Shown: positions 3,491-22,727, counted from the stretch's first letter. The stretch: DNA of 32,000 bases from an uncultured Erysipelotrichaceae bacterium (GCA_942492995.1 OW818653.1:1650001-1682000), one strand, 5' to 3'. Program-made: numbers and translations. Notes: a model not told the origin generated them from the letters alone.

Positions 3491-4816
3491 ATGATACAAG
3501 ATACGATCGTTTCACTATCTACTGCCTTAACGACTCAAGCGGTTTCGATTATTCGCTTTAGTGGGGATCGTGCGGTTGAAATAGCTGAAACACTGATAAA
3601 AAAGAATCTATCCAATCAGGACCATAGGCTTACCTATGGTTTTATTCATGAACCCCATACGAATTTAGTTGTGGATGAAGTAATCGTATTGGTTATGAAA
3701 GGACCACACAGTTATACCCGTGAAGATATTGTGGAAATACAGTGTCATGGGGGTGTTTTTGTGACCCAGAAGATATTAGGATTAGTTCTTGGATTAGGGG
3801 CACGGTTAGCGTATAACGGTGAGTTTACACAACGTGCTGTAATGAATGGAAGAATTGACTTAAGCCAAGCAGAAGCGATTAATGAGCTTGTGAATGCGGA
3901 TAGTGAACAAAGTGCACAACTAGCCATCGCAGGATTAAAAGGATCACTTAAGACATTGATTGATCCATTAAAAGAAGAATTATTAGGAATCATTGCGCAT
4001 ATTGAAGTAAATATTGATTATCCAGAATATGATATCGAAGAAATGACACGCCATACACTCTTACCGTTATGTATTGATTTCAAGGATAAATTAGAAGTAA
4101 TCGTTCATGAATCAAAGAGTGGAATCGAGATGAAGAATGGGATAAAGACTGCGATTATTGGGAAACCGAATGTTGGTAAATCATCCTTACTAAACGCACT
4201 TCTCAATGAAGATAAAGCAATCGTGACAGAAATACCAGGTACTACACGTGATGTTGTAGAAGGAACAGTACGTTTAAAGAACGTAAGTCTACATCTACTC
4301 GATACCGCTGGGATTAGACAAAGTGATGATATTGTGGAGAAGTTAGGAATCGATAAGACCTTCAAGATGATTGATGAAGCTGAACTTATTCTCTTCTTAG
4401 TTGATGCACAAAATGGAATGGATGAAGAAGAAATTAAACTATATGAAAGTATTGATCCAGCTAAAGTATTACTTGTCTATAATAAGAGTGATTTAATATC
4501 TGAGAAAAATCGCTTAGAAATAAGTGCGATGAATAAAGACATTAAACAATTAGTTGATGTGATTAACAATCGATTTGAAAGTCACCAATTCGTCTTCAAA
4601 CGTCCAGTCTTAAGTACACAACGTACCATAGGCTTAGCGATTCAAGCTCTTAATGCGATGAATCAAGCCATTGAATCAATAGAACTTGAAAATGAAATAG
4701 ATTTGATTAATATAGACTTAAGAGAAGCTTACCAAGCACTTTATTCTATTGGGTCAACTTCTTCTGACACAAACATTAACGATGAAATATTCAGTCGTTT
4801 CTGCCTAGGTAAATAA
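3491..4816 (+). CDS. mnmE: tRNA modification GTPase MnmE (TrmE)
   Basis: G-domain motifs GKPNVGKSSLLNAL, DTAGIR and NKSD, plus the C-terminal FCLGK motif. I chose ATG 3491 (MIQDTIV) as the start; the track starts 18 nt upstream. Confidence 0.9.
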   Translation: MIQDTIVSLSTALTTQAVSIIRFSGDRAVEIAETLIKKNLSNQDHRLTYGFIHEPHTNLVVDEVIVLVMKGPHSYTREDIVEIQCHGGVFVTQKILGLVLGLGARLAYNGEFTQRAVMNGRIDLSQAEAINELVNADSEQSAQLAIAGLKGSLKTLIDPLKEELLGIIAHIEVNIDYPEYDIEEMTRHTLLPLCIDFKDKLEVIVHESKSGIEMKNGIKTAIIGKPNVGKSSLLNALLNEDKAIVTEIPGTTRDVVEGTVRLKNVSLHLLDTAGIRQSDDIVEKLGIDKTFKMIDEAELILFLVDAQNGMDEEEIKLYESIDPAKVLLVYNKSDLISEKNRLEISAMNKDIKQLVDVINNRFESHQFVFKRPVLSTQRTIGLAIQALNAMNQAIESIELENEIDLINIDLREAYQALYSIGSTSSDTNINDEIFSRFCLGK

Positions 4817-4818
4817 AC

Positions 4819-5253
4819 ATGGAACTAACAATTAAACGAGTTATTGCGTATTGTATCGATGGATTAGTGGTAGGACTACCAAGTCTTATCCTTTCGCTTG
4901 CGTTTGGGATTATGCGTATTATATTAAGTCTATTACCATTTATGGGATTCTTGAGACATCCTTTTTGGGCGTTTCAATCGACGTCATTTATCTTGTTTAT
5001 CGTCTATGAATCCATCGCATTAATTGCGTTTAAGACGACGATTGGTAAATACTTAATGCATATTAAAGTTCGATCACTTGATTCAGATATCTCTAATTTC
5101 AGATATATCTTACGAACGGTTGTTAAAGGATTGTTTGCGCAATCATTCTTATTCTTACTTTCACTTATCTCTTTATTTATCATGATCTTTAACGATAAAC
5201 ATTCATCCTTACACGACATGATTGCACGGACTGAAGTCTATGAGATGGATTGA
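4819..5253 (+). CDS. RDD-family integral membrane protein
   Basis: 144-aa polytopic ORF with the N-terminal KRVIAYCIDGLV pattern (R..D) and a C-terminal HDMIARTEV, typical of RDD proteins. Confidence 0.55.
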   Translation: MELTIKRVIAYCIDGLVVGLPSLILSLAFGIMRIILSLLPFMGFLRHPFWAFQSTSFILFIVYESIALIAFKTTIGKYLMHIKVRSLDSDISNFRYILRTVVKGLFAQSFLFLLSLISLFIMIFNDKHSSLHDMIARTEVYEMD

Positions 5254-6202: not shown

Positions 6203-6715
6203 ATGAATCTACAACTTGCACGCCTAATGGCAGCTATGATACATTACGACAAAGGAGACCCCAAGCGGATTCAACATCTAATCAAGGTTCATGATCTTTG
6301 TCGGACGATGGGGCTTTTGGAAGGAATGGATGAGACTAGCTTACACATTTTGGAAACTACCGCTATTCTCCATGATATTGGTGCCCACATTAGCGAACAA
6401 AAATATGGAATGAGTACTGGAAAGCATCAGGAACTTGAAGGACCAGCGGAAGCTGAAAAATTAATGCATGAGATTGGTGGTTTCACTGAGGAAACTCAAG
6501 AACGTGTTAAATTTCTGATTGCCCACCATCATACTTATACCAATATTCAGGGGTTGGATTATCAAATCCTCATCGAAGCTGACTTTCTCGTCAATCTCTA
6601 TGAAAGCCCCAACAAATATGGTGCACCTGAGAATTCTCGTCGATTCTTCAAGACCCACACTGGAATTCAAATGCTTGCGGATATGTTTGAAAAACCTGAG
6701 TTATCTGAGTCTTAA
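6203..6715 (+). CDS. HD-domain phosphohydrolase
   Basis: 170-aa ORF with H...HD (AILHDIGAH) and a downstream IAHHH cluster. An AAGGAG RBS lies 7 nt upstream. Confidence 0.7.
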   Translation: MNLQLARLMAAMIHYDKGDPKRIQHLIKVHDLCRTMGLLEGMDETSLHILETTAILHDIGAHISEQKYGMSTGKHQELEGPAEAEKLMHEIGGFTEETQERVKFLIAHHHTYTNIQGLDYQILIEADFLVNLYESPNKYGAPENSRRFFKTHTGIQMLADMFEKPELSES

Positions 6716-6799
6716 TGATATAAATAAAAACGAAAAAAGACTTTAAACTTTAGAGTAACCCTTAATAGTCGTGACATATTAAACTCTACTACTTTTCGT

Positions 6800-8047
6800 T
6801 TAAAATTCCGCAATACTTTCATGGAATACCCATTCTTTCCATTTCAATTTTTCTTGGTAGTAGACTATCGCTTTTTTATAGAATCGATCACCTTCATAAT
6901 ACACAATTAGTTTATTTAACGTAAACTCATAATTCTCATAATCTCGTTTATCTTTAGTAAGCTGGTATAAATCAAGTAATAGAGCTTCATATTTATGACT
7001 AATATCCTTAGTGTTCTCTAAATGTATGATTTCTATCTGTTTCATAAATATTTCATTGATTAAATATTTAAATGATTCAGAATATAGTTTTTCTGAATCA
7101 TTTATTTTACCTAAATAACTTAAACTCGCAATTTTAATAAACAATCCATTCTCAGTTAATGAGTTATCCTTTTCTATTCTAGATAAGAAATTTAGTGATG
7201 ATTCATATTGTCCGTTTAAGAAATCAAACCAAGCTAGATTATAGAGTATTACTTCTTTTTGGTCGTGATTCTTTGTCTTCTCTATTTCTTTTAGAATACG
7301 TAAATAGCTTTGTTTGGCAATCGCATAGTTTTTCATTTTAGCGTGTATTGTGGCGATATGAATTTGGACATTGAGTAGTCGTGCATGATTACGATCTCGT
7401 ATAAATTGATTTTCAGCTTGTTCACAGAAACGTAATGCCTTTAATAACTTGCCATATAGTGAATATAGAATTCCCGAATGATAATAAATTAATCCAGTAC
7501 TAAGACCATGTTGGCCTAAGGATATAGCCTGTTCAATCGTATTAACTGCGTCGATTAATTTACCTTTACGCATCAAGTTAATCGCGTGATAATCGTAGAA
7601 TAGTTGTAAGTATTTGATGTTTAATTCAGGAATTCTTAAGAGTATTTTATTTAAGAATTTTGTCTCATCTTCATTGAATATAACAGATCCAATATATCGA
7701 ATTACCAAGTATATATCGCTATAAACTGAATATTCAATATACTGTTCAGCTTTTTGAATTTTCTTATATATCATTTTACTTTCTGAGATGTAATCAAACG
7801 CAATAGCTTCATAAAAATCATCAATATCATTTATGAACCTCTCACTAATATACATGATAAGTTCATAATCAATTCCAAGAGATTCAAATATTATCTTAAG
7901 ATTATCATCAGTAATTTCAATTAAATCATTTTCATATTTTGAAATTGTTTGAAAACTAAAATTTGTTAAATCTGACACATTTCGTTGAGTCATATTTTTG
8001 TTTAGTCGAGAGTCCTTTAAAAGTTGTGAGATAATTATGTTTTTCAT
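6800..8047 (-). CDS. XRE-type HTH plus TPR-like repeat transcriptional regulator (RNPP-like, putative peptide-sensing)
   Basis: 415 aa. The N-terminal Cro/C1-type HTH reads LNKNMTQRNVSDLTNFSFQTISKYEND. The rest is helical-repeat-rich with recurring A..Y/L..A..Y TPR-like patterns. The gene is very AT-rich and diverges from a small hydrophobic peptide ORF. Confidence 0.6.
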   Translation of the reverse strand: MKNIIISQLLKDSRLNKNMTQRNVSDLTNFSFQTISKYENDLIEITDDNLKIIFESLGIDYELIMYISERFINDIDDFYEAIAFDYISESKMIYKKIQKAEQYIEYSVYSDIYLVIRYIGSVIFNEDETKFLNKILLRIPELNIKYLQLFYDYHAINLMRKGKLIDAVNTIEQAISLGQHGLSTGLIYYHSGILYSLYGKLLKALRFCEQAENQFIRDRNHARLLNVQIHIATIHAKMKNYAIAKQSYLRILKEIEKTKNHDQKEVILYNLAWFDFLNGQYESSLNFLSRIEKDNSLTENGLFIKIASLSYLGKINDSEKLYSESFKYLINEIFMKQIEIIHLENTKDISHKYEALLLDLYQLTKDKRDYENYEFTLNKLIVYYEGDRFYKKAIVYYQEKLKWKEWVFHESIAEF

Positions 8048-8073
8048 TTTGTTTGTCGCTTCAATATACCTAA

Positions 8074-8101
8074 ATTATAGTGCTTAAGCAAGAAAAATCA
8101 A
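8074..8101 (-). promoter_or_regulatory. Putative sigma-A promoter of the HTH-TPR regulator
   Basis: On the minus strand, TTGATT, a 16-nt spacer and TATAAT lie about 27 nt upstream of the ATG. Confidence 0.35.
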
Positions 8102-8107
8102 AGAAAG

Positions 8108-8141
8108 AATAGAATTAGTGGTATGTATTCTATTATATAAT
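8108..8141 (+). promoter_or_regulatory. Dyad element AATAGAAT-N11-ATTCTATT abutting a TATAAT -10 box; candidate regulator box and promoter for the small peptide ORF
   Basis: Perfect 8-bp inverted repeat at 8108-8115 and 8127-8134. TATAAT lies at 8136-8141, with no good -35 hexamer, which suggests an activator-dependent layout. Confidence 0.35.
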
Positions 8142-8161
8142 TTAAGTAAGAGGAGAACTAT

Positions 8162-8227
8162 ATGGAACTAAATGCAATTATTGAGATTATTTTAGTAGCA
8201 TTAGAATCAGTTATACCAAAGATTTAA
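8162..8227 (+). CDS. 21-aa small hydrophobic peptide MELNAIIEIILVALESVIPKI (candidate signalling pro-peptide)
   Basis: An AGGAGA RBS at 8151-8156 lies 5 nt before ATG 8162, and a TATAAT lies about 20 nt upstream. The ORF is divergent from the HTH-TPR regulator. It is too short for the six-frame track. Confidence 0.4.
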   Translation: MELNAIIEIILVALESVIPKI

Positions 8228-8384
8228 TTTGTTTTTTCATTAAACAGTACAATCTCAAATCATAGTTTGTCTTTAGCAATTGTAGATATAATTAATTCTT
8301 TGTGACAATTCTTTTTGGTGATTGTGGTTGTTGAATTCAGGATGGCTTAATTTTATAAATTATTAACATAAGGCAATATTATAA

Positions 8385-8999
8385 ATGATCAATAAATTAA
8401 AGTTTATAAAGAATAATTGTAAAGAAATGTTAATCGTAATTTTATTTTTGATTAATATGTTTTACGTTGGTTATCAAAGCTATGAACTTAATAATGCATC
8501 ATTATTGCAAGTTGAATTATTGCAAGAAGTCGAGAATGAAAAGAAAACGTTAGATTCTACTAAACAAGATATATTTAGTAGAATTATAGAAGATTTGGAA
8601 GTAATAGAACGTGATAATAATTTGGATTATATATTTAAATTATTTGGTTTAGATATTCAAGTTCATTTGGAAGAAGAACTTCCTAATAATATAGTACTTG
8701 CAGTAAATAAAATGACTAGAGAATTTGGTTTTTATTATTTGAGTGATACAATAATTTTTCCATATCAAACATATTACATTGATACTAGAGGGAACCTTGG
8801 TAGTTTAAAAGATTATAACAATTATCTTGATAAAACAAATGGTGTATATATTTATAAATACACTGGTAATGATGAAGATTTCAATTTTCAATGGGCATAT
8901 GCTTATAATAAATCAACCGGTTTCTTAGACAAGTATGAATTTAAATGGTATCCCGCTGATTCAATGGAAATAAGTTTTCTTTCGAATATTGAGGGATAG
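8385..8999 (+). CDS. Membrane-anchored protein of unknown function (paralog A)
   Basis: 204 aa with one N-terminal TM helix (MLIVILFLINMFYVGY). It shares the block LFG..(V/I).V.L...LP......G.YY..D with the next ORF. The start codon is uncertain because the RBS is weak. Confidence 0.5.
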   Translation: MINKLKFIKNNCKEMLIVILFLINMFYVGYQSYELNNASLLQVELLQEVENEKKTLDSTKQDIFSRIIEDLEVIERDNNLDYIFKLFGLDIQVHLEEELPNNIVLAVNKMTREFGFYYLSDTIIFPYQTYYIDTRGNLGSLKDYNNYLDKTNGVYIYKYTGNDEDFNFQWAYAYNKSTGFLDKYEFKWYPADSMEISFLSNIEG

Positions 9000-9001
9000 T
9001 T

Positions 9002-9535
9002 ATGAGAAATAGCAAATTTTTAGTACTCTTTTCGATTTTATTGATTATGATTCTTATTCAAAATATATATTTTAACAAGAAATTTGATCAAATAGATTCG
9101 TCTTTGAATAAAGTAATGTTTGAAATTAGTAACCAAAAACAACAACTTATAGAAGATTACTATTTTAATAGAAAAATGTTTCTTAATGTTCTTAATTATA
9201 ATAAAAACGAAGATTATAAAGTGAATTTATTTGGAAGAACTGTTTATGTGAGACTCAGTAGCAGATTACCTCGCGATATGTACTTAGTTGAGAACTCACT
9301 TAATAATAGTGTTGGAATATATTACATTGATGATAATTCTAGTATCTCATTAAGAAGTTATACATTAGAAATGGTTTCAAATAAATTAACTTTTATTAAA
9401 TCTAAAGATTTCGTTATTAGCACAGAGTTTACATCGAAAGACATAGTTAATATTAGGGATATAAAAAGAATTGAATTAGAAAAGCGGAGAATTGAATTTT
9501 CATTAAGTTTAGAACCAAACAACATAGTTGATTAA
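9002..9535 (+). CDS. Membrane-anchored protein of unknown function (paralog B)
   Basis: 177 aa with an N-terminal TM helix (FLVLFSILLIMILI). It begins 2 nt after paralog A ends and shares the NLFGRTVYVRLSSRLP...VGIYYIDD block with A. Confidence 0.5.
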   Translation: MRNSKFLVLFSILLIMILIQNIYFNKKFDQIDSSLNKVMFEISNQKQQLIEDYYFNRKMFLNVLNYNKNEDYKVNLFGRTVYVRLSSRLPRDMYLVENSLNNSVGIYYIDDNSSISLRSYTLEMVSNKLTFIKSKDFVISTEFTSKDIVNIRDIKRIELEKRRIEFSLSLEPNNIVD

Positions 9536-9574
9536 AATATTCTAATTTATTATAAATATATAAGATTTAATAAT

Positions 9575-9593
9575 GACGCAATGCGTCTTTTTT
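9575..9593 (+). terminator. Rho-independent terminator after paralog B
   Basis: GACGC-aat-GCGTC hairpin followed by TTTTTT. Confidence 0.6.
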
Positions 9594-9602
9594 AATTTAT
9601 GC

Positions 9603-9633
9603 TTGACCTAAAGTTAACTTTAGGTTATATGAT
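9603..9633 (+). promoter_or_regulatory. MerR-type promoter/operator (site 1)
   Basis: TTGACC, a 19-nt spacer, then TATGAT. The spacer carries the perfect 20-bp palindrome ACCTAAAGTTAACTTTAGGT (9606-9625). A 19-bp spacer with a dyad is the classic MerR-family architecture. Confidence 0.6.
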
Positions 9634-9664
9634 ACGATTATATAAAAGAGAAAAGGAGATTCAC

Positions 9665-10051
9665 ATGACATACTCAATTGGTGAGGTTTCAAAAAAGACA
9701 GGTTTAACAGTCCCGACCTTACGATTTTATGATAAAGAAGGATTGATCCCAAACATCAATCGTAAAGAGAATGGACTACGTAATTTTACTGAGAGTGATT
9801 TGGGTACGATTAATATCGTCACATGCATAAAAGGAGCAGGTGCTTCTTTAAAAGAAATCAAACATTATATGGATTTATGCCAAATGGGAGATTCGACATT
9901 AGAGGATCGTAAACAATTCTTCATGGATAAGAAGAAAGACATTGAAGAACAGATGAACAAGCTTAATGAGATACTAGCGACTATCGAACACAAGATTCAT
10001 TACTATGAAACTGCGTTAGAAGCTGGTACAGAAAAGATTCATAAGAAATAA
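9665..10051 (+). CDS. MerR-family transcriptional regulator (AdhR/NmlR-like)
   Basis: MTYSIGEVSKKTGLTVPTLRFYDKEGLI is a MerR HTH. A C-terminal coiled-coil dimerisation helix is present, as is Cys54 in the IVTCIKGAG context. An AAGGAG RBS precedes ATG 9665; the track ORF is extended to 9599. Confidence 0.8.
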   Translation: MTYSIGEVSKKTGLTVPTLRFYDKEGLIPNINRKENGLRNFTESDLGTINIVTCIKGAGASLKEIKHYMDLCQMGDSTLEDRKQFFMDKKKDIEEQMNKLNEILATIEHKIHYYETALEAGTEKIHKK

Positions 10052-17902: not shown

Positions 17903-18129
17903 TTTGAATCATCCTTAACTTCATAATTGAATACTTTCGTGAGAGGGACATTAAACGCATCCGCTATGCGAAAAGCTAGTTCTAAAGTAGGTGAGTACTT
18001 ACCTGCTTCAATAGCCATAATAGTTTGACGTGAAACACCTGCCTTTTCCGCCAAGTCTTGTTGGGTCATTTCATTCGCAAAGAATCGAAGGGTACGTACT
18101 TGATTGGTGATGTTAAATTTTTTAGCCAT
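17899..18129 (-). CDS. Small XRE-family HTH transcriptional regulator
   Basis: MAKKFNITNQVRTLRFFANEMTQQDLAEKAGVSRQTIMAIEAGKYSPTLELAFRIA is a Cro/C1 HTH. An AAGGTG RBS lies 6 nt before ATG 18129. The stop overlaps the next ATG (ATGA). Confidence 0.8.
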   Translation of the reverse strand: MAKKFNITNQVRTLRFFANEMTQQDLAEKAGVSRQTIMAIEAGKYSPTLELAFRIADAFNVPLTKVFNYEVKDDSK

Positions 18130-18622
18130 TGCGTACACCTTTGAAATAGAAGAATAGATTGCTTAAGCCTTCACTTAAACTACCAACAAAGAAGGATAAG
18201 TACATGATGTTTAATACAACTACAATATTTCCACCAAACGCTAAATAGACAAGTGAACTAACAAACCCAACACTTACCACAATATATCCTACACGCATAG
18301 ATTTAAGCTCAATTAACTTATCCATTTCATCTTCAATCATCTCTAATTCAAGCTTACGATTAATCTCTTTATCATCTTTACTCTGTTCTTTTATCGCTAA
18401 GTTAATTGAGAGATAGATATGAAACACAATATGTAATACAATAGTAACGATAACCCCTACAACAATGTAAGTAACCATCTGTTTAGCCCAGTATTGTAGG
18501 TCATTTTCGATGATATTTCCAGCCTTATAATGGTTATAAATGCTTAAACAATAACTCACTAGAATGATTAAACTAGCAACTAAACTAGTGATGGTTTTCT
18601 TTGTCTGATATGTCATAAACAC
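18122..18622 (-). CDS. Integral membrane protein, unknown function (first gene of the XRE operon)
   Basis: 166 aa with about 4 TM helices and a charged central loop (KEQSKDDKEINRKLELEMIEDEMDK). An AAGGAGG RBS is present. Confidence 0.5.
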   Translation of the reverse strand: MFMTYQTKKTITSLVASLIILVSYCLSIYNHYKAGNIIENDLQYWAKQMVTYIVVGVIVTIVLHIVFHIYLSINLAIKEQSKDDKEINRKLELEMIEDEMDKLIELKSMRVGYIVVSVGFVSSLVYLAFGGNIVVVLNIMYLSFFVGSLSEGLSNLFFYFKGVRNG

Positions 18623-18809: not shown

Positions 18810-18838
18810 TTGCCAGATAAGATAACTTGTGCTAAAAT
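18810..18838 (+). promoter_or_regulatory. Sigma-A promoter of the 3D-domain lipoprotein gene
   Basis: TTGCCA, a 17-nt spacer, then TAAAAT with an extended TGn (TGCTAAAAT). Confidence 0.55.
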
Positions 18839-18869
18839 CACGAAGTCATCAGATAAAGGAGACAAACGA

Positions 18870-19712
18870 TTGATAAAAACTAAAAAAGCATTGATTGCGG
18901 GAGTTATCCTACTTCTAGCAGCGTGCACACAAACAACGGAAAGTACTCATGTTGTGCTACAAAAAGCAGATCAGAACACAATATTGAGCGCCGCACTTGT
19001 TTCACCTTTTACGTTTGAAGAAAGCGTTGAGACGACTTATGATACGACACCTATTAAAACGGTACTCAATCCAATGGACAACACACGAACAGGTTATCCT
19101 TGGCTAATATCAAAAGTGAGTGAAGGTAGCGTAGGCTATACGGAAACTCGTTATCGTTCAACCTATGATAGTGAGGGGAATCTACTATCAAAAGAATACA
19201 TACCTGATTCGGAAACCTATACAGAAGGTAAACCAACCATTTACCAATATGGGGCTAAGGTTGCGAAGGGGGCATATTTCTACGCACGTTCAATCACTAA
19301 ATATGGATTTGATTGTACAGGCTGTGGAATCGGTTTAGATGGAAATGCAGGAACGTCTGCAGGTATACGTTTAAATGCGACGAGCATACGCCAATCCAAT
19401 GGAACATGGTTAGATGGAATTACCTATGATGGATACTATGTTGTGGCAGCGGATAAAGCTTACCCAAATTGTACAATTCTAGAGATTTCAAATCATACGT
19501 TCAGTGGTATGGGATTAACATCCGGGGTTCCGTTCTTAGCACTTGCTGTGGATCGTGGTGGCGCTATTACCACAAACAAATTAGATTTATTTGTCGGTAG
19601 TGAGAAGAATATTAACGTTGTGACAAATAAACGTACAGCAGATTCTAAAGTAACCGTCGTTGGATTCCTTAAGTGGACGAAAAATGGATTAGGTGAAAGA
19701 ATTTGTAAGTAG
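18870..19712 (+). CDS. Lipoprotein with a C-terminal 3D (DPBB, MltA/YabE/YuiC-like) domain; putative cell-wall-active protein
   Basis: An AAGGAG RBS precedes TTG 18870; the track's 18810 start overlaps the promoter. Lipobox LLLAAC. 3D-domain pattern: KYGFDCTGCG...GTSAG, VVAADKAYPNCT, ALAVDRGGAI, KLDLFVG. It occupies the yabE position upstream of rnmV-ksgA. Confidence 0.6.
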   Translation: MIKTKKALIAGVILLLAACTQTTESTHVVLQKADQNTILSAALVSPFTFEESVETTYDTTPIKTVLNPMDNTRTGYPWLISKVSEGSVGYTETRYRSTYDSEGNLLSKEYIPDSETYTEGKPTIYQYGAKVAKGAYFYARSITKYGFDCTGCGIGLDGNAGTSAGIRLNATSIRQSNGTWLDGITYDGYYVVAADKAYPNCTILEISNHTFSGMGLTSGVPFLALAVDRGGAITTNKLDLFVGSEKNINVVTNKRTADSKVTVVGFLKWTKNGLGERICK

Positions 19713-19998: not shown

Positions 19999-21354
19999 AT
20001 GGGTAATAAACATTTAGAAGGTGAGTCAAACTTAATTGAATATAAGCTAACTTTGCCTGAAGATAATACAAAGTGGTTAAAGAGTGTCGTATCTTTTAGT
20101 AATACTTCTGGGGGGAGATTGATCGTAGGTATTGAAGACTCAACATTGAAGGTAGTTGGAATTCAAGATGAAAGATCTAAAATAGAACAAAGAATAGTTG
20201 AATCAATACATAGCAATATTGAACCTAGACCAATAATCGATATAAGTTTTGAAAATTATGAAGATAAAGACATAGTAATAATTCAAGTAGCCAAAGGAAA
20301 TGAAACTCCATATTATATAAAAAAGGAGGGCATAGAGGAAGGGTGCTATGTTAGGTTTGGATCAACTGATCAAAAAGCAACAAATAGTCAAAGACTTGAA
20401 CTAAGACTTAATAGAAATAATGAAACATTTACAAGCGAAATCTATAATAAGAATGCTAAATTAGTTAAAAGAGATGATGCTGAGATATCAAAATTCCTTA
20501 GTTTTATAAATACTCAAATTAAAAGTGGCAAGAGTTTGAATGAAAATAAACTTTTGGAATGGAAGTTGCTTAGAAATGAATTTGATAATATTTATGCGAC
20601 TAACGGACTGATGTTATTAACAGAAAATCCATTCAGTCAAAGTTATATAAAAATAGGTGTGTTCAAAGGGGTAACAAAGTCTGAAATAAAGAAAGACTAT
20701 GTTATAAATGGCTCGATAATTGCACAATATTTTGAAGCGATGAAAGTTTTACTTAACGAATTGGAAGATGGTTATTCAATTGCTACAATTCGAGAAATGA
20801 AATATAAAGTTCCAGAAATAGCCATTAGAGAAATTTTAGCTAATGCAATAATTCATAGAAGTTATATAGATGAACAAACTATTAGAATTAGCATTTTTGA
20901 TAATAGAATAGAAATATATTCGCCAGGAACATTATTTGATGGTCTGCAAATAGAAGATGCTATAAATGGTCGTTCCAAACTTAGGAATCCTAATATAAGT
21001 GAAGTTTTCTATCATTTAGGTTTGATAGAGAAATGGGGATCAGGAATTCAAAGAGCGAATGAAGCATTGAGTAAAGAAAATTTTCTTCCTTTAATCTTCG
21101 AAGTCAATAATATACACGGGGTTAATGTTATTATTAAATTTGAAAAAATTGTAAATGAAGTTAATGAAAGTATGATAAATGTCGAAAACTATTTAGACTT
21201 TAAATCTACATTCACACGTAAAGATCTGGAGAGTGATTTAAATATCACTCAAGATCAAGCTAGATACTTGGTTGAAAAGTGGGTAAATAAAGGCAAAATA
21301 GTAAAAATAGGTGGAAGTTCAAAATCTAAGTATAGTGTAAACAAAATAAATTAA
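19999..21354 (+). CDS. AlbA_2 (Schlafen-like) domain protein with a C-terminal HATPase_c_4/RecG-C-like ATP-binding domain and wHTH
   Basis: N-terminus ESNLIEYKLTLPEDN...SFSNTSGGRLIVGIED...ETPYYIKK...YVRFGSTD is an AlbA_2-type domain. REILANAIIHRSY...IEIYSPGTL...RNPNISEVFYHLGLIEKWGSGIQR is the HATPase_c_4-type block. The tail looks like a wHTH. The gene is very AT-rich. Confidence 0.75.
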   Translation: MGNKHLEGESNLIEYKLTLPEDNTKWLKSVVSFSNTSGGRLIVGIEDSTLKVVGIQDERSKIEQRIVESIHSNIEPRPIIDISFENYEDKDIVIIQVAKGNETPYYIKKEGIEEGCYVRFGSTDQKATNSQRLELRLNRNNETFTSEIYNKNAKLVKRDDAEISKFLSFINTQIKSGKSLNENKLLEWKLLRNEFDNIYATNGLMLLTENPFSQSYIKIGVFKGVTKSEIKKDYVINGSIIAQYFEAMKVLLNELEDGYSIATIREMKYKVPEIAIREILANAIIHRSYIDEQTIRISIFDNRIEIYSPGTLFDGLQIEDAINGRSKLRNPNISEVFYHLGLIEKWGSGIQRANEALSKENFLPLIFEVNNIHGVNVIIKFEKIVNEVNESMINVENYLDFKSTFTRKDLESDLNITQDQARYLVEKWVNKGKIVKIGGSSKSKYSVNKIN

Positions 21355-21424
21355 TGTATTAAATATGAAATTCGAATTCATTAAACATTTTAGAAAATCT
21401 TTAGTTATAATTGTCAAATAATAG

Positions 21425-21463
21425 AAATAACGCCTTGAACATAAATCAATGCGTTATTTTTTT
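21425..21463 (+). terminator. Rho-independent terminator after the AlbA_2 gene
   Basis: AAATAACGC-(17 nt)-GCGTTATTT followed by TTTT. Confidence 0.5.
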
Positions 21464-21581
21464 ATGATTTAACATATCGTTAAACTATAATAAGAAACAT
21501 ATTATTAATTCGTTATTATAGTATAGATTGATAAAATATAATAAGAAGATATAATAAAGTTAATAATGCGAGGAACTAGGT

Positions 21582-22727
21582 ATGATAAATCGAGCAGGGC
21601 AAACCATAAAGAATCTATCAGGGGCATCTACATATACTTCTTATCAACCTAATCCTTTGATGGATGATTTAGATATCCATATGGATAATGAGATGATAGA
21701 GCTATTAGTAAAGGCAAATAGGGAGATAGCGGTATTAGAACGTATCTCAAGTTACATACCTAATATTGATTTATTCATCACAATGTATTTACGTAAAGAA
21801 GCGCTTATGTCTTCACAAATAGAAGGAACACAGGCAACACTTGAAGATATTTTAGATCCAAGTATTGTCGAAAATTCTAATTTAGAAATAGTAGATGTTG
21901 TTAATGTGGTGAAGGCAACACATTTTTCGATGAATCGATTAAATGAATTACCTTTATGTAATCGACTCATAAAAGAAACGCATTCTATCCTTATGGATGG
22001 GATAAGAGGTGGGGATAAGAGTCCTGGAGAGTTTCGACTTTCGCAGAATTGGTTAGGTGGATTTGGGAGTACGTTAAAGACTGCACAATATATTCCACCT
22101 AATGTACAAGATATGTTAAATGGAATGTCAGATTTAGAGAAATATATGAATACAGAAAGTAGTGTGGATCCATTAATCAGAGCTGGATTAATACATTACC
22201 AATTTGAAACAATTCATCCTTTTTTAGATGGTAATGGAAGAATCGGAAGATTGTTAATTCAACTATACTTAACGCAAACTAAAACGTTAGTATTACCTTC
22301 CTTAAGTATTTCGTATTATTTGAAGAGATATCGCTCGGAATACTATGATCGATTAACTGATGTACGACGTACAGGGCAGTATGAACAATGGCTTAAATTC
22401 TTTTTAAGAGCGGTGTATGAATCTGCGGAAAGTGCAAATTTAACGATTAAACAAATGATGTTTCTGAACGAAATTAATACTGAAGTTATTCTATCATTTG
22501 GACGTATCTCATATACTGGATTAAAGTTACTTAGATATATAGAAGAGAATCCTATTGTTGAAGTTAGAAAGACTTCTATAGATTTAGGTTTAACATTTGC
22601 GACTGTATCTAAATGTGTTGATCTATTTGTTAAACACGGAATTCTAATTCAATATAAAGGCCATAAAAGAAATCGATTGTTTGCCTATGATGCGTATTTA
22701 CAATTATTAAGAGAAGGAACGGAGTAG
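21582..22727 (+). CDS. Fic-family protein (class II, N-terminal inhibitory helix, C-terminal wHTH); putative AMP/NMP-transferase
   Basis: Fic active-site motif HPFLDGNGRIGR. N-terminal (S/T)xxxE(G/N) inhibitory motif in MSSQIEGT. The C-terminal segment LGLTFATVSKCVDLFVKHGIL is wHTH-like. Confidence 0.85.
   Translation: MINRAGQTIKNLSGASTYTSYQPNPLMDDLDIHMDNEMIELLVKANREIAVLERISSYIPNIDLFITMYLRKEALMSSQIEGTQATLEDILDPSIVENSNLEIVDVVNVVKATHFSMNRLNELPLCNRLIKETHSILMDGIRGGDKSPGEFRLSQNWLGGFGSTLKTAQYIPPNVQDMLNGMSDLEKYMNTESSVDPLIRAGLIHYQFETIHPFLDGNGRIGRLLIQLYLTQTKTLVLPSLSISYYLKRYRSEYYDRLTDVRRTGQYEQWLKFFLRAVYESAESANLTIKQMMFLNEINTEVILSFGRISYTGLKLLRYIEENPIVEVRKTSIDLGLTFATVSKCVDLFVKHGILIQYKGHKRNRLFAYDAYLQLLREGTE

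Follow-up and report, generated by a model that had tools for sequence, protein, structure and literature searches.

A probable signalling-peptide gene beside an NprR/Rap-like regulator in an uncultured Erysipelotrichaceae bacterium

In 32,000 nucleotides from an uncultured Erysipelotrichaceae bacterium (GCA_942492995.1, OW818653.1:1650001–1682000; this whole stretch is called the window here), an open reading frame (ORF) of only 21 codons lies at 8162–8227 on the + strand. It stands between the gene of a putative regulator, which is transcribed in the opposite direction, and two genes for membrane-anchored proteins that follow it. A first reading of the window, made from the sequence alone, had singled out the ORF as a possible pheromone gene. 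Is an ORF of this length a gene at all, and what would its product be for? Judged from sequence comparisons, the ORF is real and conserved and was never annotated. It probably encodes the precursor of a secreted signalling peptide (pheromone) that is sensed by the neighbouring regulator. Regulator and peptide together are best read as a quorum-sensing cassette of the RRNPP type that would form a new subfamily.

By direct reading, the ORF starts with ATG at 8162 and its TAA stop ends at 8227; the product is MELNAIIEIILVALESVIPKI, and the ORF also appears on the ORF list. A Shine–Dalgarno (SD) sequence, AGGAGA, is located on the same strand at 8151–8156, 5 nt 5' of the ATG. The −10 hexamer TATAAT is found at 8136–8141 and is kept in all related loci. 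The positions that the sequence-only reading had given for the ORF, the AGGAGA, the TATAAT and an 8-bp dyad (see below) were all correct. The window contains nine short ATG ORFs (12–35 amino acids [aa]) with an SD-like motif, and the ORF at 8162–8227 is the sole one outside any long ORF. It had been described as unannotated, and this extends beyond the window: none of seven 21-aa peptides, including that of the window, was present in an exact look-up in ~15 billion predicted proteins, and the gene-caller listings of the related loci did not contain the peptide ORF in any locus.

The related loci were obtained by fetching the DNA around relatives of the regulator gene and examining the strand opposite the regulator for short ORFs. 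An ORF of 19–21 codons with a strong SD was found in 28 loci, divergent from the regulator and ~105–140 nt from its start. A 29th copy (L033) was clipped by the end of the contig. The loci named are L003–L012, L014–L020, L022, L029–L031 and L035, and there were 14 distinct peptide sequences. The SD at the equivalent position was strong (GGGGGAGG, AAGGGAGG, AAGGTGGGTGG). The nearest relatives were found via an 80%-identical homologue of the 204-aa protein encoded downstream of the ORF, on nine contigs from several samples.

The peptide of the window is joined by MELTAIIEIILVALESVIPKI in L029–L031 and L035 (and in the clipped L033) and by ..LLEIIIIILESVLPKI in L014. Eight loci (L003–L008, L017 and L018) encode MEELNFIYWLISLFDNKYPKI. 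The form MGDL[DN]LL[LI]WL[IM]SLFD[YN]KIPR[VI] is found in L010 (twice), L012, L019, L020 and L022, and MIELYY[LI]IIDLFDMVLPKF is found twice in L011. Single loci carry MDNLYQFIIDMFDLVLPKF (L015), MIVFYCCVIDLFDTVLPKF (L009) and MIELYHLIIELFDMVLPKF (L016). All copies share the C-terminus [DE]-x-[VK]-[ILY]-P-[KR]-[IVF]-stop, after [LFM]-[FLA]..., and the residue at −7, counted from the C-terminal end, is always D or E. Conservation across clades is confined to the last 7–9 residues, and the N-terminal half varies freely.

A check set beforehand was whether the ORF, and not just the DNA, is conserved, as judged by the pattern of synonymous and non-synonymous changes. The ORF itself proved to be conserved. 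The 66 nt of the ORF differ at six positions between the window and L029: four changes are synonymous, one is non-synonymous (N4T) and one turns the stop codon TAA into TAG. With 24% of sites synonymous, four or more synonymous changes among five sense changes are expected under neutrality with P = 0.013. Identity to L029 drops right after the stop codon, and a 102-nt indel follows. Within clades, the proportion of synonymous differences (pS) was far above that of non-synonymous differences (pN), with 0.85 vs 0.24 between L004 and the L010 clade, 0.38 vs 0.02 between L010a and L019, and 0.54 vs 0.19 in a further within-clade example. Purifying selection acts on the peptide reading frame.

Short ORFs are frequent in AT-rich DNA, and the dyad alone is not significant. 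The ORF might thus be a product of chance in an AT-rich intergenic region, the real feature being only the promoter of the downstream genes. This is already contradicted by the comparative data: length, start, SD and C-terminal motif are kept where the regulators share 35–40% identity and the remaining intergenic DNA can no longer be aligned, and the changes show a synonymous bias. We give a chance ORF practically no probability.

The peptide also follows the regulator. Four regulator clades with a mutual identity of 35–48% correspond one-to-one to peptide types, the tails being ESV[IL]PKI, DNKYPKI, D[YN]KIPR[VI] and D[LTM]VLPKF. Peptide and regulator co-diverge. A small cognate propeptide ORF beside the receptor gene and co-evolving with it is a mark of RRNPP systems, and these loci show it clade for clade. 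Moreover, every locus carrying the peptide has the divergent peptide gene with further genes (cargo) downstream. In L010, two complete units of regulator, peptide and cargo are arranged in tandem (3801–5212 and 6535–7946); the regulators are 97% identical, the peptides are identical and the cargo is different. In L011, a second copy of peptide and cargo lies beside a truncated regulator remnant of 61 aa (peptides at 1713–1772 and 3815–3874). Duplication (L010, L011) and loss (L001, L013) each involved peptide and cargo jointly. We consider it very probable that the ORF at 8162–8227 is a real gene with a functional tie to the regulator.

A short ORF that is real could still act in cis, as part of an operon's 5' leader. 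Its product would then be a leader peptide for ribosome arrest or attenuation, with the Pro-Lys/Arg-X-stop end as the stalling motif, and the conserved C-terminal end, in which Pro stands three residues from the stop, would suit this. The RNA around the ORF does not. The stretch from the ORF to the first downstream gene contains no terminator and no alternative hairpins. The leader RNA (8148–8400) folds less stably than shuffled controls (z = +2.1), which argues against an attenuator or riboswitch-like structure, and an Rfam scan of 7900–8500 with a permissive E-value gave no RNA family. The spacer between the ORF and the first gene varies from 45 to ~260 nt, with indels. In addition, co-divergence with a receptor built of tetratricopeptide repeats (TPRs) is not expected of a leader peptide. 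This explanation is very unlikely.

The next question is what kind of protein the regulator is. Its gene (6800–8047, − strand) encodes 415 aa, with an XRE-type helix–turn–helix (HTH) domain at the N-terminus and approximately nine TPR-like helix pairs, which Pfam, a family profile, AlphaFold2 (AF2) and Foldseek together assign to an NprR/Rap-like fold. Pfam identified HTH_3 (E 4e-9, residues 10–62) and TPR_12. None of the NCBIfam models names the regulator, and no Rgg model of Pfam or NCBIfam matched it. The best match of the family profile in the PDB was NprR (4gpk, 5dbk), with an E-value of 3.5e-6 over residues 73–411. The homology to NprR is remote (E about 1e-6, 14–17% identity).

The AF2 model of the regulator (predicted local distance difference test [pLDDT] 87.7) is all-helical, with the HTH followed by ~9–10 helix pairs. 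The top matches of Foldseek in the PDB were phage Rap, RapF, NprR, pLS20 Rap and RapI, with target-normalised TM-scores (TMt) of 0.59–0.72, and Rap and NprR in peptide-bound form were among them. The alignments to NprR and Rap comprised 350–367 columns (TMt 0.64–0.72). PlcR (query-normalised TM-score 0.35–0.41) and AimR (rank 35) followed at lower ranks, and no structure of Rgg, ComR or PrgX was among the top 50 matches. By profile and predicted fold, the regulator is a nine-TPR protein of the NprR/Rap kind, not of the Rgg or ComR kind. The TPR-type superhelix common to RRNPP(A) receptors was found (TPR_12, the AF2 model and the Foldseek matches to Rap, NprR, PlcR and AimR), as was the N-terminal HTH present in all subfamilies except Rap (HTH_3).

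The regulator is rare: it was found in only 11 clusters in 5.8 billion proteins. A profile search of 1.84 billion representatives gave 12 matches at E<1e-30 and 193 at E<1e-10. The relatives with a taxon label are from metagenome-assembled genomes of Erysipelotrichaceae. A phage origin was also considered and found no support; viral contigs gave a match at the level of the HTH only.

Does the peptide look like a ligand for such a receptor? Its N-termini are acidic throughout the family (ME, MEE, MGD or MIE), and none of the 12 peptides tested has a Lys or Arg before the last five residues. The net charge is 0 to −2, and the longest apolar run is at most nine residues. There is neither a basic n-region nor a signal cleavage site, and a peptide of 21 aa is too short for a Sec signal. 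The sequence-only reading had pointed to the missing Lys-rich N-terminal segment and the negative charge of the window's peptide, and it had suggested, as a possibility, a class distinct from the canonical short hydrophobic peptides (SHPs). The acidic N-terminus free of Lys and Arg proved to be a family-wide trait, and a distinct class is favoured.

In SHP precursors, the C-terminal 7–9 residues starting from Asp or Glu are the signal. By analogy, the conservation of the peptides found here (free N-terminal part, acidic residue at −7, fixed tail) matches that pattern. The mature signal of the window may correspond to the codons at 8204–8224 (+ strand), which encode the heptapeptide ESVIPKI; this placement follows from the conserved tail motif and, for the cleavage site, from the analogy to SHPs. 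That the mature form is exactly this heptapeptide is a tentative assignment. The earlier proposal of a pheromone-type peptide with an active tail from the acidic residue is favoured by the conserved ORF, the tail motif, the synonymous bias and the tracking of clades. As the receptor is a 415-aa NprR/Rap-like protein with nine TPRs and not Rgg or ComR, the term "SHP-like" used there describes an analogy and not a membership.

The same properties were weighed for a role as effector. The peptide is hydrophobic, helix-prone and without signal peptide, and its gene heads an operon that otherwise encodes membrane-anchored proteins. It could be a small hydrophobic or membrane-associated peptide under the control of the regulator instead of its ligand, for instance one resembling phenol-soluble modulins or leaderless bacteriocins or a partner of the anchored proteins. 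The cargo in related loci, which resembles secreted antibacterial enzymes and small membrane proteins, fits this. However, apolar runs of nine residues at most, broken by conserved acidic residues, cannot form a transmembrane helix or span a membrane, and the small membrane peptide that had been named as an alternative is unlikely for the same reason. The net charge of 0 to −2 is also unlike that of cationic bacteriocins. The peptide type stays constant while the cargo changes completely, and the peptide co-diverges with the regulator, not with the cargo. Furthermore, the ligands of the like-folded TPR receptors among the matched structures are peptides. We regard a role as effector as unlikely.

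Alternatively, the peptide could signal to the same regulator without being processed, either as a full-length 19–21-mer in the manner of the leaderless communication peptides (LCPs) of RopB or by acting only within the cell that makes it, with no export step. The peptide as a whole is short and has no recognisable export or cleavage signal, and its central hydrophobic part is fairly conserved within clades (e.g. WLISLFD). LCPs prove that unprocessed peptides can signal; most of those described are 8–10 aa long, though, and are paired with receptors of the RopB/Rgg clan (PMC10518010). Between clades, conservation of the peptides is limited to the last 7–9 residues, with free variation before them. 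In the best structural matches (Rap and NprR), the bound peptides have 5–8 residues (entry titles; PMC4970707). Signalling by the full-length peptide has a low probability, and a processed, secreted signal remains the favoured explanation.

RRNPP peptide quorum sensing is well known in Bacillus, Streptococcus and Enterococcus, and the cassette was compared with the described systems. NprX is a ~43-aa Sec-dependent propeptide, and its gene directly follows nprR in the same orientation. This layout was not found: the peptide described here has 19–21 aa and no Sec signal, its gene is divergent from the receptor gene, and it comes first in the target operon. The likeness to NprR/NprX of the Bacillus cereus group lies in the architecture of the receptor (~420 aa in NprR vs 415 aa here), NprR being built of an HTH, an N-terminal helical bundle like that of Rap, and TPRs (nine altogether) and belonging with Rap and QssR to the nine-TPR "clan B". 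The mature NprX is a linear peptide of 7–8 residues (SKPDIVG or SSKPDIVG), and it makes NprR a DNA-binding transcription factor (PMC4970707).

The gene arrangement resembles Rgg/SHP instead, with a divergent gene for a short non-Sec peptide that is followed by target genes, and with Asp or Glu starting the presumed active C-terminal 7–9 residues. In Rgg2/SHP2 and Rgg3/SHP3 of streptococci, the gene of the short hydrophobic non-Sec peptide is divergent and auto-induced, and the targets follow. The receptors are different: Rgg has ~285 aa (280–300 aa for receptors of this type) and five repeats, while the regulator has 415 aa and nine TPR-like repeats and showed no Rgg match in Pfam, NCBIfam or the top 50 fold matches. 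The peptides differ as well, with an acidic N-terminus here in place of a Lys-rich one and an xP[KR]x tail unlike the tails of SHPs.

ComS of S. mutans is a 17-aa precursor without a basic N-terminus, and its C-terminal heptapeptide is the signal (XIP). The receptor, ComR, resembles Rgg and has five TPRs, and its gene is followed by comS in the same orientation. The short precursor without basic N-terminus and, presumably, the C-terminal heptapeptide signal are shared with the system described here. The targets are not, as unrelated membrane or secreted proteins take the place of a competence sigma factor. LCPs are likewise without leader or signal sequence, hydrophobic and encoded beside a cytoplasmic receptor (PMC10518010). 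The peptide described here is longer (19–21 aa), the receptor is not Rgg-like, and only the C-terminal third of the peptide is conserved, which suggests processing, unlike in LCPs.

How the peptide gene would be controlled was read from its promoter. A box conserved in the whole family, GAATAGAAT, is located at 8107–8115 (+ strand), with the core TAGA[CA][AT] at 8110–8115. It is a candidate regulator-binding or −35-like element, 20 nt 5' of the −10 hexamer. In 17 of the 17 peptide promoters examined, TAGA[CA][AT] was followed after exactly 20 nt by TA[TC]A[AC]T; these include two loci without ORF (L001 and L013). Other copies of the extended box were sought in the window as a sign of further regulon members, and the peptide promoter was the sole match. 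A consensus promoter scan reported no promoter for the peptide ORF because there is no −35 hexamer 16–18 nt from the TATAAT. A spacer of 20 nt between −35 and −10 is too long for efficient unaided recognition by sigma-70, which fits a dependence of the peptide promoter on the regulator.

The dyad, AATAGAAT (8108–8115)-N11-ATTCTATT (8127–8134), spans the −35 and spacer region (8108–8134) and is a candidate operator of the window's subclade. By itself it was rejected as significant: a perfect 8-bp inverted repeat with a loop of 5–20 nt occurs in ~7% of simulated 114-bp sequences of equal composition (P ~0.07). It was retained as a candidate element because of the comparative data. In the nearest relatives (L029, L035; the L029–L035 group), the arms are identical at 16 of 16 positions and the loop is changed at 4 of 11. 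The left arm overlaps the TAGA[CA][AT] box. L014 retains TAGAA-N13-TTCTA, and nothing equivalent to the right arm occurs in the other clades; the complete dyad is confined to the window's subclade. From these alignments, what the whole family shares is the box, with its constant distance to the −10, and not the full dyad; the dyad is a plausible subclade-specific operator. An activator-dependent promoter with the dyad in the −35 region had been proposed. The dependence on the regulator fits the 20-nt spacer, but the full dyad is specific to the subclade and only its left half, TAGA[CA][AT], is family-wide.

The regulator gene has a sigma-70-like promoter of its own on the − strand (TTGATT-16 nt-TATAAT, 8074–8101; 10 of 12 consensus matches), and its ATTATA element is kept in related loci. 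In clades other than that of the window (L004, L009, L010, L012 and related loci), the −10 TATAAT of the regulator (ATTATA on the displayed strand) is only ~10–16 nt from the ATG (ATGAGCGACAAA...). The regulator mRNA of these clades would thus be leaderless or nearly so. In the window's clade, the start codon of the regulator is shifted and preceded by a GAAG/GAGG SD.

Two genes follow the peptide ORF on the + strand. The first (8385–8999) encodes a 204-aa protein with an N-terminal hydrophobic anchor and would be a target of the regulator. It belongs to no known family: neither Pfam nor NCBIfam gave a match, and only two homologues were found in 5.8 billion proteins, in addition to a 47%-identical one at the equivalent position in L014. 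Its AF2 model (pLDDT 40) was too poor for a fold search. The second gene (9002–9535) encodes 177 aa, also with an N-terminal hydrophobic anchor and without family match. This protein is 28% identical over 67 aa to the L014 homologue of the 204-aa protein, and it has no direct blastp match to the 204-aa protein itself. In L029–L034, the 177-aa gene is also present, after a 208-aa homologue of the first gene.

Between the peptide ORF and the first gene, neither a + strand sigma-70-type promoter (16–18-nt spacer) nor a terminator was found. An intrinsic terminator (GACGC-AAT-GCGTC and a T run, 9575–9593, + strand) lies after the second gene; its terminator-like site at 9575–9587 is the only one on the + strand in 8200–9700. 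With no internal promoter or terminator and a single terminator after the second gene, the peptide ORF and the two genes look like one transcription unit. In L001 and L013, which are orphan loci, the remnant is followed by the same hairpin.

The cargo varies from locus to locus. The two anchored proteins of 204 and 177 aa are those of the window and its subclade. In L009, L010, L011, L016, L019, L020 and L022, the first cargo protein has a near-identical signal peptide, MK[VI]LKSLFVLLFFISLASPV[NS]A, and unrelated mature domains. Outside the window's subclade, the mature domains match Amidase_6/CHAP or DUF2599 or nothing, and small membrane proteins are encoded next. The cargo of L014 has a different signal peptide and a sub-threshold match to Peptidase_C39_2. 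These comparisons make the cargo look like exchangeable modules of secreted effector and immunity protein, placed behind an export signal and a quorum-sensing promoter that stay constant.

The proposed mechanism is as follows. The regulator would be expressed from its own sigma-70-like promoter. The 21-aa peptide, without a Sec signal, would leave the cell by a non-Sec route and be cleaved to a C-terminal fragment, most likely ESVIPKI from the conserved acidic residue. An oligopeptide permease (Opp) would re-import the fragment, which would then bind inside the TPR superhelix of the regulator. The loaded regulator would act at the TAGA[CA][AT] box and the dyad in the over-long 20-nt spacer, by activation or by de-repression. 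This would turn on a single transcript for the peptide gene (positive feedback) and the two membrane-anchored proteins (8385–9535), ending at the terminator at 9575–9593.

Several observations weigh against this mechanism. A dyad between the −35 and −10 positions would suit a repressor just as well. SHPs are exported by PptAB and cleaved by Eep, and no genes of the Opp, PptAB-like or other ABC-exporter, or Eep-like kind were found within the 32-kb window. The acidic N-terminus is unlike that of SHP, iCF10-type and Sec-type propeptides, and no known exporter can therefore be assumed. In addition, two loci, L001 and L013, both from one metagenome (JGI 3300021174), have intact regulators (83–85% identical to that of the window) and no peptide ORF. 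They show that the receptor can persist as an orphan, without an adjacent cognate gene. Both loci (L001 at about 3736–4000, L013 at about 1779–2133) have kept TAGAAA-20 nt-TATAAT and the SD GGGGGAG, have neither ORF nor cargo, and run directly into the same terminator hairpin and then the MerR gene. As ORF and cargo are both missing, the entire output module has been lost; this is not a case of a locus left intact apart from a disrupted ORF. Finally, in L014 (81% identical; about 1483–1560, − strand), the ATG after the SD is out of frame with the ...LESVLPKI end (ATG ACT ATT TGT TAG). An assembly error of 1 nt, a true frameshift (pseudogene) or a TTG start 13 nt after the SD are possible causes.

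Some other relatives of the regulator were inspected as well. L002 (regulator 58% identical) has no convincing peptide ORF or box upstream, on a contig that ends 592 nt upstream; it has a 34-aa ORF with a poor SD that ends in DFVLWI. L004 and L017 have regulators that are only 72% identical, while the intergenic region is nearly identical, the DNA of the peptide ORF is identical, and the cargo genes of 197 and 62 aa are nearly identical. Regulators this divergent beside a near-identical flank suggest recombination within or next to the regulator gene. Two distant relatives of the regulator (L024 and L025; 21–24% identity) have beside them a Cys-rich ORF of 56 aa (2804–2974 and 2814–2984, respectively) with a signal- or lipobox-like N-terminus (MKKLMTTFALAALLLAGIC...). 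It lies immediately upstream of the regulator on the same strand, behind TAGACA-17 nt-TATAAT. Such a signal-like, co-oriented ORF recalls NprX, but its place is upstream of the receptor. This ORF could encode a Sec-type propeptide of the classical sort, belonging to the same wider receptor group, or a small secreted peptide with no relation to it. These two loci hint at a derived origin of the short peptide in a broader NprR-like group.

The surrounding parts of the window are ordinary chromosomal sequence close to the replication origin, with gidB, parB-like genes and other housekeeping genes. The MerR-family gene after the terminator is listed at 9599–10051, and its probable start is the ATG at 9665 (MTYSIGEV), preceded by AAGGAGA as SD. 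The promoter of this gene is laid out in the classic MerR manner, with TTGACC (9603–9608), a 19-nt spacer and TATGAT (9628–9633), and with a perfect palindrome, ACCTAAAGTTAACTTTAGGT (9606–9625), in the spacer. Further along, at 19999–22727, a Schlafen AlbA_2/HATPase_c_4 protein (451 aa) is encoded beside a Fic/DOC protein (381 aa). The pair is preceded by two ORFs without Pfam match (18122–18622 on the − strand and 18810–19712 on the + strand). The region at 19999–22727 may be a small defence or toxin island.

What would the system mean for the family? According to a structural phylogeny, non-Sec or leaderless pheromones are an innovation of the five-TPR Lactobacillales clade (PMC12700828). 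A pairing of a nine-TPR receptor with a short non-Sec peptide is not described there. No literature linking RRNPP with Erysipelotrichaceae was found, and the supplements of the RRNPP_detector paper contain no Erysipelotrichaceae genus name, which is a weak negative as the files are possibly incomplete. The cassette may represent an undescribed RRNPP subfamily of the Erysipelotrichaceae, with a nine-TPR receptor of the NprR/Rap type and a very short non-Sec precursor with an acidic N-terminus, of independent origin outside the five-TPR Lactobacillales clade (Rgg/ComR/PrgX). On the sequence evidence, the chances of this are about even.

The comparison provides at least four predicted pherotypes for synthesis (ESVIPKI, DNKYPKI, DYKIPRV and D[LTM]VLPKF). 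It also provides a search rule for genes of this kind that are missed by gene callers, namely an ORF ending in [DE]xx[ILY]P[KR][IVF]-stop behind TAGACA-20 nt-TATAAT. If the reading is true, the targets of the system in the related loci would be exchangeable cassettes of secreted enzymes and small membrane proteins, maybe effector/immunity pairs. It would point to an exporter and a protease or maturation route that are yet to be identified. The non-Sec mode of peptide export would have arisen more than once.

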